Shown here piece by piece: positions 4,624 to 64,000 of a stretch of DNA of 64,000 nt. The notes under the pieces were generated by a model, which saw nothing but the letters and a program-made list of their open reading frames with translations, made no database searches and was not told the DNA's origin. A program made the position numbers and the translations under genes. Source of the DNA: Octopus vulgaris (Eukaryota); the NCBI GenBank assembly GCA_951406725.2, contig OX597819.1:67704001-67768000 (forward strand), read 5' to 3'. Numbering within the stretch: the stretch's first letter is position 1; every line of letters begins with the position of its first letter.

Positions 4624-5556
4624 ATGGATATATACAACTCCCAAATGTTCAACGCTAAATTGATTTCCAATCATTCAAACACTTCTACAATTCTTTCTAT
4701 ACGGTATATTTCCATAACATTACTGACATTAGGAACTTTCAATAATTTAGCTGTTATTGCAATATTCTGCAGAAAGGAAATGCGTCATTACAAAGCTGCT
4801 CCATATTTTATTTGTTTGGGGTTTGTAGATTTGAGCATTGTCTTGACAGGGTCCATCAGATATTTAAGTTATAGTTTTATTCATCAAAATTTCGCCTCAG
4901 CCAGCGCGTTGTTTGATTATCCAATTTTGAACAGAATTTCTTTCTCTCTTGACATGTATTCCTCGTGGTTAGTGGTGGTTATATCGCTGGAACGTTTGAT
5001 AGCAATTTATGCTCCATTTTCCCAACTACGTTTTACTAATACTTACAAACCGTTCGCTGTTATGTTTGTTCTTCTGATTTGTATATTTATAACGAATTTA
5101 TTAATTGCACTACTGGAAAATAATATAGCGCATAATTTTCGCATATCATTCTTGATGTATTCATTCATGCCTGCAGGAATTTTATTCGCCAGTTCTGTAG
5201 CTTTGATTTATAAGTTACTCCACCGACCAAATCTCGGTCAACAGATTCAACACAACGTCTTATCACGGAGAATGACAACAATTCGTGTTGTAATTGCCAT
5301 GAATGTTTTATTTCTTCTGACAACATTCCCGATGTCAATTTTTTTCTTTATAATAACGCAGAATAATAAAGAATTTTACATAAATTTCGAGACTCTTATC
5401 CTGCTAAGTACATTTGCGCTGATTAACAACTGTTTCAACTTTGTTTGTAATATGATTACAAACAAAGCGTTTCGCGAAAGTTTCAAAAGAACATTCTTCC
5501 GAAGGCCTTCAGGGGTCAGACAGACTCTCTATATTTTGCATGACAGAAATACTTAA
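4624..5556 (+). CDS. Class A 7TM GPCR, copy 1 (310 aa, intact; orphan, FMRFamide-receptor-like/chemoreceptor-like)
   Basis: Seven hydrophobic segments. TM1 GTFNN, TM2 LGFVD, TM3 SSW..ISLERL, TM5 YSFMP, TM6 FLLTTFP, TM7 NNCFNFVCN, helix 8 FRESF. N-terminal NHS/NTS sequons. Confidence 0.92.
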   Translation: MDIYNSQMFNAKLISNHSNTSTILSIRYISITLLTLGTFNNLAVIAIFCRKEMRHYKAAPYFICLGFVDLSIVLTGSIRYLSYSFIHQNFASASALFDYPILNRISFSLDMYSSWLVVVISLERLIAIYAPFSQLRFTNTYKPFAVMFVLLICIFITNLLIALLENNIAHNFRISFLMYSFMPAGILFASSVALIYKLLHRPNLGQQIQHNVLSRRMTTIRVVIAMNVLFLLTTFPMSIFFFIITQNNKEFYINFETLILLSTFALINNCFNFVCNMITNKAFRESFKRTFFRRPSGVRQTLYILHDRNT

Positions 5557-5569
5557 TACTTTATTCCAT

Positions 5570-5578
5570 AAGGTAAGT
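5570..5578 (+). other. Putative 5' splice site in 3' UTR of copy 1
   Basis: AAG|GTAAGT consensus donor, 16 nt after TAA. Confidence 0.7.
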
Positions 5579-5902
5579 AGTCATTTGCATAATATTTGCA
5601 ACTGCAGTTATATATCTTTTTGCACTTGCTAATTACATCTGCTTATATGTGAACATGTGTATATGTTTATTTTTGTAGGTTTGCAATTCCTTTGTAAGCT
5701 CTTATGTTTCTTGAAGTAACCAACCTACGGATCTATTTAGTTTAAATGTATCTATTTATCTACGTATCTATCTATCTGTCTATCTTTATATATATATACA
5801 TATATATATATATATATATATATATATATATATACATATGAGTATGTGTGCGTGTGGGTATGTGAATGTGTGTATGTTAATGCATATATATATATATATA
5901 TA

Positions 5903-6359
5903 TATTGGGTTGTCCGGAAAGTGGGTGCCGATTTTTAAAGGAAAGAAAAAGGTCAATAAATACTTGCAGTTATATTTTTAATCAACCAAATATGAATATG
6001 AACCATTTTGTTGCACAATGCATCTCCATCTTTCCTTTAACTTGAAAATACCCTCTTCCCAGAATTGAGGTGGTTTCATGGCAAAGAATACAATTTTTAC
6101 CATTAAAACTATTCTGCAGAGACTTGAATTAGTGGAAACCCGAAGGAGCAATATCTGGTGAATATGGAGGGGGGGGGGGGCTAACACATCCCAGCCGAGC
6201 TGCTGCAAATTTTGTCTGGTTCTCAAAGCATCAGGTGCCGAAAATGAACTTTCTTATCTTCCATTTTAAAGGGTTACAGAATTAACAAAGCTTATAGGAA
6301 CACACACCTTCTTCATGGAAAAGAAAGCTTAAACTGTGCTCTAAATGGAGGTGTAGTCC
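5903..6359 (-). mobile_element. Internally deleted mariner-type element (5' end missing)
   Basis: TIR-like TATTGGGTTGTCCGGAAAGT. Remnant transposase TRQNLQQLGWDVL..SPDIAPS..FWEEGIFKLKERW fused to N-terminal MEDKKVHFRHLML. Confidence 0.8.
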
Positions 6360-62500: not shown

Positions 62501-62747
62501 GTCGATTTTGCAGCAGGAATTTCACTCGTGTATCTTAAAATGAGCTGCTTGGCGGAGGTCTGCGGAGAATGACATGGCAAGCCTTGACTACTGGGATCGA
62601 CTCAAAAAATCTCAGGTTTTGCTCCGTATACTGCTGCTGTGAAACTAGCTTCTTGTTGTCATTGATGTATTATAACTGCTTCAGATAACTGCTTCAGATG
62701 ATTCCTATTTTTAAAGGTTCTTTTTAAAAGATCATATGGCTGTGCTA

Positions 62748-62884
62748 TTTTTTAACCCCCGTCGAGGAGGTTATGCTTCTAATGGCGTTCGTTTGGGAAA
62801 TTTGGTGATTTTCAGCATGCGTGTATATGGGTGGAAATGAGCTGCTTGGCGGAGGTCTGCACCCTCCGAGTGCTTTTGTAGTTT
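62748..62884 (+). mobile_element. Short Helentron/HINE-like non-autonomous element; partial second copy ending about 62565
   Basis: 5' TTTTAACCCCCGTCGAGGAGGTTATG, 3' TTGGCGGAGGTCTGCACCCTCCGAGTGCTTTTGTAGTT (subterminal IR plus terminal hairpin). Confidence 0.5.
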
Positions 62885-63481
62885 TCTTTGTACAATTATT
62901 AGTTTTAATGACGCGGAACTTCTTCATATGTTTCAACAATGGTTCCACGGCAATTTTTGTACATACATTTACATACCGTCGGTAGTGATATCTGTTCTGC
63001 ACTTAGCCTAGTTGATCCTTAACATAGTCGGTCCTTAACGCTTGTTCTTGAGTTGCGCATATGAGTGTTGTTATTATTATTAATATCATTATCATCACCA
63101 TTATCATTACTATTATTATTATTATTATCATTATTGTTTTTGTTTCTGTTGTTGTTGTTATCATTATTATTATTATTACTGCTGTGGTTGTCGTCGTCAT
63201 CATCATCATCATCACCATCAACGTCAATATCTCCCTTACTTCGACCTAACTGCCTGATTTTCCTTTTTTTTATATATCTTTTTAGTATAGACCATCATTT
63301 GTGTCCTCAGTGTCTTTCTCAATTGAGGTTTCTCAGATTTTATGTTCCTTCATCAATAAAATAGTTGAATAATGATGGACGGTTCTAAATATCGAGTCTC
63401 ACCCAAAATGTACGGATGTACTTAGACGATTAAGTTTATAAATAAATTCATTTTCCAAATCTTAATTAACTAATTACAATA

Positions 63482-64000
63482 TCACTTAAATATCTCTTTA
63501 GTTTTCTTCTGGATTTGTTTACTAAATCAAAAATATATTATACAATTAAAGCTGTTGTTTGTGCATGCCAAAATATTAGTAATTAGATAATCAATTTCTG
63601 CCATGATTATTTCACGAAAATCGGCAATGTTTGTACTTGTAATAATGGACACAGGGCCAGTTGTGAGTAAAACCATGGCATTTATAGTGATCACTAAGCA
63701 AAAGCCTTTCCTTGTTTTTTTGATTTGCCTATCGCGTTGACCAATATTAAGTCTACGAAGTAATTTGCATGACATTAGAATAGTGCTGAAAATTAAAATG
63801 GTTGCTGATATGTGGGAATAAACACAACAAAATATGAAAACAGTCGTTGTCTGAGAAACGAAGAGTCGGTATATTAAAATGGCAGAAAGTACAAACGAAC
63901 AAATTAAAACTGTTGATAATGCAAAGAGTTTTCTTTAAACTCCTTGCTACAGTAAAAAAAAACACGGATAGTAGTCGTTCAAATGAGATAAGTACAGTTA
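63482..64000 (-). pseudogene. GPCR copy 8, 3' half (TM3 to C-terminus); 5' part lies beyond the window; appears disabled
   Basis: Minus strand reads TVLISFERLLSV, then a frameshift near 63925-63935. It continues ...VYSHIS..KLLRRLNIGQR..INAMVLLTTGP..NNSFNCIIYF with premature TGA at 63527-63529, followed in frame by FSKQIQKKTKEIFK* (cf. copy 7 ISKNFRNKFKEIF). Confidence 0.82.

Follow-up and report, generated by a model that had tools for sequence, protein, structure and literature searches.

To our knowledge, the receptors for distance chemoreception in the octopus have not been established. The published systems closest to the locus described here are summarised below. Tandem, partly pseudogenised expansions of G protein-coupled receptors (GPCRs) of class A were presented as candidate chemoreceptors by Nath et al. 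(2025; PMC11886862), 11 from Octopus bimaculoides, 23 from O. sinensis and 51 from O. vulgaris, and in the same work the small number of GPCR expansions in cephalopods was explained by reliance on ionotropic receptors. The rhinophores of Aplysia express clustered single-exon rhodopsin GPCRs (PMC2700072), and srw relatives occur across protostomes (PMC3963977). In the Mas-related receptor MrgD, a short second extracellular loop (ECL2) and the absence of the cysteines C3.25 and C45.50 result in a shallow, solvent-exposed, low-potency pocket (PMC9287403). The present analysis concerns 64,000 nucleotides of O. vulgaris DNA (contig OX597819.1, positions 67,704,001 to 67,768,000, forward strand), hereafter the window, which carries a tandem array of class A paralogues that appear to be lidless, with ECL2 collapsed. 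At a probability of about one half, we read the intact copies as open-pocket, low-affinity sensors of external chemicals.

With the four long open reading frames (ORFs) of the window as tblastn queries, eight related class A GPCR loci were found within 60 kb, the remaining matches being short and weak (E of at least 0.1). Four of the loci are intact, each as a single ORF on the plus strand: copy 1 (4624..5556, 310 amino acids, subfamily I) and copy 4 (38214..39107, 297 amino acids, subfamily II), both identified by ORF, tblastn and Pfam, copy 3 (31854..32753, 299 amino acids, subfamily II), identified by its ORF and modelled with AlphaFold, and copy 7 (55219..56043, 274 amino acids, subfamily III), the deepest branch of the clade to which the array belongs. 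Copies 2, 5, 6 and 8 are broken. A preliminary description of the same stretch, made from the sequence alone, had likewise counted eight paralogues in 60 kb, four intact and four disabled by differing lesions, and both tblastn and lesion mapping bear this out.

A profile search of 1.84 billion representatives matched 5731 proteins at E <= 0.001, among them 21 at E <= 1e-30; the best 150 of these matches were considered. A quick 73-row tree placed the copies from the window together with 15 database proteins on a single branch with a Shimodaira-Hasegawa-like approximate likelihood ratio (SH-aLRT) support of 99, and in a more careful tree of 55 rows, hand-picked from 168 proteins and computed under LG+G4 with no mixture model and with the trait columns removed, the clade received 100/99; in this tree, copy 8 was entered out of frame over its initial 15 residues. 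The clade sits inside a grade of receptors with short loops (96/83, 95/89) and away from the named peptide receptors. Its members are mutually only 30-55% identical, and a taxon name is known for two of the 18 members outside the window, both from O. bimaculoides. One of them, P0001, is the closest named homologue, 82% identical to copy 3 and on this similarity its likely orthologue; the other is P0004.

Cysteines and the span between R3.50 and P5.50 were scored in 149 of 156 proteins, the seven others being dropped as shorter than 240 or longer than 720 amino acids; positions are given in Ballesteros-Weinstein numbering. Neither C3.25 nor an ECL2 cysteine is present in any of the 17 full-length rows of the clade, the segment from the top of transmembrane helix (TM) 4 to the top of TM5 is cysteine-free in all of them, and the span is 58-62 residues (59-61 in the window copies). 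Both cysteines are kept by seven of the eight proteins of the short-loop sister grade, at a span of 63-70, and by 122 of the 124 other scored proteins, at a median span of 79.5 (range 62-127). Because the sister grade has a shortened loop yet both cysteines, the tree suggests a stepwise loss, in which the loop was shortened first and the cysteines were lost second.

The AlphaFold model of copy 3, built from 126 aligned sequences with a predicted local distance difference test (pLDDT) score of 89.4, comprises seven transmembrane helices and helix 8, with TM4 at residues 132-154, TM5 at residues 158-190 and a turn of about three residues between them. ECL2 is accordingly modelled as collapsed to a few residues, and the pocket is predicted to be left uncovered. 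The model adopts a class A fold (best Foldseek TM-scores about 0.72-0.76; VIA Z 27.9, with a root-mean-square deviation of 2.7 over 261 residues), and fold searches with it returned class A receptors at much the same level, none of them standing out.

The unusual part of this architecture is the loop collapse and not the loss of the disulfide. The C3.25-C45.50 bond is typical but not obligatory, being present in more than 90% of class A receptors with known exceptions (PMC9287403). The collapsed ECL2 is the most distinctive feature of the array and is absent from the preliminary description. In a full-text literature search, outside the scope of which lay most subscription journals, no octopus GPCR clade without ECL2 was described, and the combination of lidless receptors with a grade that still displays the intermediate state appears to be undescribed. 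The expansions of PMC11886862 resemble the array in being class A and tandem, in having full-length, truncated and pseudogene members and variable extracellular TM halves, and in lacking the TM3-ECL2 linkage; they differ in that their reported norm is an ECL2 of 25-30 residues, in contrast with the predicted TM4-TM5 turn of about three here. The array may be among the octopus entries of that paper, with which it was compared by description, their sequence sets being on Zenodo. MrgD and the melanocortin receptors share with the clade a short ECL2 and the absence of C3.25 and C45.50 (PMC9287403), which is a functional analogy and not kinship. Position 6.48 is not tryptophan in MrgD (PMC9287403) and is threonine in the clade, whereas the TM4-TM5 disulfide C4.64-C5.33, conserved in the Mas-related receptors (MRGPRs), is absent from 17 of 17 clade rows. 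The lidless state of the clade is of independent origin from that of the MRGPRs and the melanocortin receptors.

The intact copies are under purifying selection. By the Nei-Gojobori method (NG86) with bootstrapping, the ratio of nonsynonymous to synonymous substitution rates (dN/dS) was 0.55 between copies 3 and 4 (95% confidence interval 0.39-0.77) and 0.43 between copies 1 and 3 (0.28-0.61), and in neutral simulations of copy 3 the frame was open in 5 of 1000 runs at half the synonymous distance between copies 3 and 4. The two sides of the receptor have diverged to different extents: between copies 3 and 4, the extracellular half is 41% identical at the amino acid level and the intracellular half 74%, and over the 17 clade rows, columns of the outer TM halves have an entropy of 2.26 bits versus 1.12 for those of the inner ones (p = 8e-12). 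The pocket positions 3.29, 5.42 and 6.55 each exceed 3 bits; in the same rows F6.44 and N7.45 are invariant, and S3.40, Y5.46, T6.48 and Y7.53 are nearly so.

If the intact copies are sensors of external chemicals, they would have descended from a FMRFamide-receptor-like peptide receptor via the stepwise shortening of the loop and the subsequent loss of the cysteines, and local duplication with gain and loss of copies would have generated the array. The conserved cytoplasmic half likely couples to ordinary G proteins, as in other class A receptors, and the uncovered, variable outer pocket would admit different ligands in each copy, probably with low affinity by analogy with MrgD. The site of action would be a peripheral sensory epithelium (sucker, skin, gill or olfactory organ), where the receptors might work alongside the ionotropic chemotactile receptors. 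A bolder version, which taken as a whole is doubtful, holds that the octopus lidless repertoire arose from a peptide receptor by stepwise deletion of ECL2 and the disulfide, convergently with the mammalian itch and irritant MRGPRs, that it provides cells of the sucker, skin or olfactory organ with a metabotropic route of chemosensing beside that of the chemotactile ion channels, and that copies segregate as null alleles.

Several points weigh against external sensing. Raised variability of the outer half is expected in most paralogous GPCRs, and the entropy contrast given above was computed on the clade alone. Both halves have dN/dS values below 1 (0.64 and 0.44), so that positive selection is not demonstrated. 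Both cephalopod class A expansions with published expression are transcribed mostly in testis, in gill or broadly and not in a sensory-specific manner (PMC6408891), and large endogenous peptides likewise go with an open pocket, the melanocortin receptors being an example (PMC9287403). The disulfide loss, once considered as a marker of non-peptide function, was rejected in that role, for all five of the named FMRFamide/dmsr-type peptide receptors checked are also without both cysteines, their loops being long (span 80-93); the TM3-ECL2 linkage is moreover reported to be absent across lophotrochozoan expansions (PMC11886862), so its loss is not diagnostic. Nor is the lidless trait unique to the clade, because two proteins from outside the window on a separate branch, P0042 and P0086, would have reached a similar short cysteine-free loop independently (neither cysteine, span 62, loop motif RP.LG); they represent either an independent lidless lineage or a misplacement.

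It is possible, and deserves to be kept in view, that the copies are instead internal sensors, which in gill, gonad, gland or haemocytes would respond to endogenous peptides or metabolites or to microbial products, much as the melanocortin receptors do, or MRGPRX2 on mast cells. The origin of the array in a peptide-receptor branch is consistent with such a role, as are the expression of the published cephalopod class A expansions in testes and gills (PMC6408891), the access that a short ECL2 gives large peptides to melanocortin receptors (PMC9287403) and the expansion of FMRFamide-like receptors in Lymnaea, read mainly as reproductive signalling (PMC11589774). However, half of the array consists of dead copies, and neighbouring copies have very different pocket residues, a pattern that would fit ligand turnover better than one conserved endogenous peptide. 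In the portion of the O. bimaculoides expression table of PMC6408891 that was inspected by eye, no gene had the 768-bp span expected for P0004.

Rather improbable is the proposal that the array mostly comprises decaying redundant duplicates, of which one or two matter, so that the remaining changes, the loop loss included, would reflect relaxed constraint and not ligand diversification. Four of eight copies are broken, the dN/dS values of 0.43-0.55 are fairly high, copy 1 has lost Y7.53, and frameshifting deletions in copy 3 occur in single contigs of two public runs, all of which would accord with decay. On the other side, the dN/dS intervals exclude 1 and open frames seldom survive neutrally, and the clade, though highly divergent, is uniformly lidless (17 of 17 members) and has invariant residues on the signalling side.

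The family to which the array belongs was examined by domain, motif and tree. PF00001 scored above its gathering cutoff (30.5 bits) in three of the four intact copies, copy 7 reaching 27.7 bits, and PF10324 (Srw) was above its cutoff in three of four and was matched by 23 of 30 alignment members. All four intact copies carry N1.50, D2.50, E/DR3.50, P5.50, P6.50 and N7.49, with P7.50 replaced by F or C. Y7.53 is present except in copy 1, where TM7 (5440-5450) has N; the tyrosine occurs in 16 of 17 clade rows and in the broken sister copy 2, and the substitution may either stem from an error in the base sequence or mark a receptor that is weakened or biased. The matches in PDB (galanin receptor 2, GPR35, GPR139, rhodopsin and Mas, the last at E 4e-8 and no stronger than many other class A receptors) were all weak and gave no ligand clue, and searches of the ESM Atlas yielded nothing beyond generic 7tm_1 clusters, among which, for P0007, those named GPR139/142 took ranks 13 and 18. 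The array shares PF10324, in three of four intact copies, and the TM7 motif NxxxNFxxY with the FMRFamide receptor/dmsr/srw-like branch, and differs from FMRFamide/dmsr-type receptors in its span (59-61 versus 80-93) and in being multi-copy with turnover. Of the interpretation in the preliminary description, this much is supported: a tandem array of single-exon class A GPCRs, subject to birth and death of copies, from the FMRFamide-receptor/srw-like branch. That account had also named one-to-one orthology with a conserved neuropeptide receptor as the outcome that would overturn it, and for the named octopus FMRFamide receptor such orthology was not found (23% identity, supported separating branches); judged by identity and branching, the array copies are not its orthologues. 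It is very improbable that the copies arose by recent duplication from a single conserved neuropeptide receptor of FMRFamide or myosuppressin type with the ligand kept, for although the nearest named outside proteins among the matches listed are labelled FMRFamide receptor, dmsr-1 and sex-peptide receptor and the TM7 NF..Y motif is held in common, identity to the FMRFamide receptor of O. bimaculoides is only 23%, three supported branches with other rows intervene (99/99, 96/97, 100/99), and pocket positions are not conserved among the copies.

Two further molluscan systems invite comparison. Like the array, the receptors AcCRa-c of Aplysia (Cummins et al. 2009, PMC2700072) are clustered, largely single-exon and spaced at about 9-13 kb, and pseudogenes and interspersed retroelements accompany them. 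Their TM3 signature, (F/W)ITAF(I/V)TFERCLCIA, is absent here, the aligned window copies having V(A/V/I)(I/M)S(I/L)ER(M/L)(L/I/F)A; they are also longer (AcCRb 319-364 amino acids), and they are expressed in the rhinophore (PMC2700072). Groups 1 and 2 of Ritschard et al. (2019, PMC6408891) are likewise class A, cephalopod-specific and tandem, group 1 including seven genes, most of them short, in a 60-kb stretch of Scaffold18646. The sister sequences of these groups are tachykinin-, orexin-, CCK- and GnRH-type receptors, the terms 'Srw' and 'FMRFamide' have no occurrence in the annotation file of PMC6408891, and three Scaffold18646 genes match PF00001 at E 5e-16 to 3e-25 versus 8e-10 to 2e-6 here, under different Pfam versions. 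On these indirect signs, the Ritschard groups are probably a different family.

The general idea is not new, as tandem, pseudogene-bearing class A expansions of octopus are already candidate chemoreceptors in PMC11886862, and the earlier suggestion of a separate, uncharacterised system therefore overstated the novelty. What the locus adds is a set of four receptors that are short, free of introns and cloneable and whose open pockets diverge, by which the question of chemoreception becomes directly testable. Irrespective of function, the clade and the short-loop sister grade that retains the cysteines form a natural series for class A folding and signalling without ECL2 and the disulfide. Should the genes act internally, they would be one more modest molluscan GPCR expansion.

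Identity at the DNA level is 65% between copies 1 and 2, 70-76% among copies 3-6 and 55% between copies 7 and 8, versus 44-58% between groups. The three subfamilies in positional order (copies 1-2, 3-6 and 7-8) that had been claimed are confirmed by these values and by tree support of 100/96, 100/100 and 99/97. The coding sequence had been described as uninterrupted in all eight copies, which holds for the intact single ORFs; copy 8 has only its 3' approximately 530 bp in the window, and copy 6 is broken by a repeat and not by an intron. The six motifs offered as private signatures had a mixed outcome: PY.[IV]CL is present in four of four intact copies and RY.SI, YSF[IM]P, RP..GQQ and [VI]FLLT..P in three of four each, while N..N[FC]..Y, found in only one of four, was rejected as private because it is present in 69 of 134 outside proteins.

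Each broken copy bears its own lesions. Copy 2 (15314..16177, plus strand, subfamily I) has stops at 15512 and 16035, a deletion of about 43 bp near 15580 and a 1-bp deletion near 15962. In subfamily II, copy 5 (41529..42440, plus strand) has a TAG at 41802, a short compensated frameshift with a TGA near 42057 and a tail frameshift near 42379, and copy 6 (45525..46814, plus strand) shows frameshifts and in-frame deletions besides its stops at 45654 and 45723, and carries a repeat insertion of about 430 bp, in which two tandem 184-bp units lie between TM3 and TM4 (45888..46254, plus strand). Copy 8 (63471..64000, minus strand) is represented by its 3' part, from the end of TM3 to helix 8, with frameshifts near 63957-63927 and a TGA at 63529; its 5' half lies past the window edge, and its position on the minus strand opposite copy 7 makes the two convergent, as had been stated.

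Upstream homology of copies 3-6 begins about 140-160 bp ahead of the ATG, at a conserved TAG|TCT (around 31700-31710 for copy 3), and the shared segment of about 150 bp was placed by alignment at 31700..31853 on the plus strand. The splice-acceptor-like context makes this site the likely start of a 5'-untranslated-region (5'-UTR) exon at the end of a 5'-UTR intron.

Contigs from public sequencing runs also touch copy 3. Three runs, each with one contig of 186-269 bases at a depth of 2-3, were considered as RNA evidence and rejected, because the depth of the repeats implies genomic DNA at about 0.4-0.5x and because the runs had been found through copy 3. Frame-shifting deletions were noted at two sites, 32154 and 32365. 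In run X2, a single contig at depth 3.1 misses 11 bases, which may be an error, and in run X5, under another organism label, a single contig misses 8 bases at depth 8.4 of 16.2. These deletions hint at null alleles or at loss in a relative.

The window is AT-rich and holds many microsatellites. An interspersed repeat with 184-bp units gave 15 blastn matches in the window, often head-to-tail (for example 7267-7570, 30667-30967, 36807-37258 and 45888-46254), and is extremely deep in public sequencing runs; it is probably a high-copy element resembling a short interspersed nuclear element (SINE). On the minus strand, ORF fragments between copies 7 and 8 (58403-58882 and 59371-59679) resemble remnants of a retrotransposon lacking long terminal repeats (non-LTR), and the short ORFs between copies 4 and 5 (39910-40720) are similarly suggestive of a decayed Tc1/mariner-type transposase.

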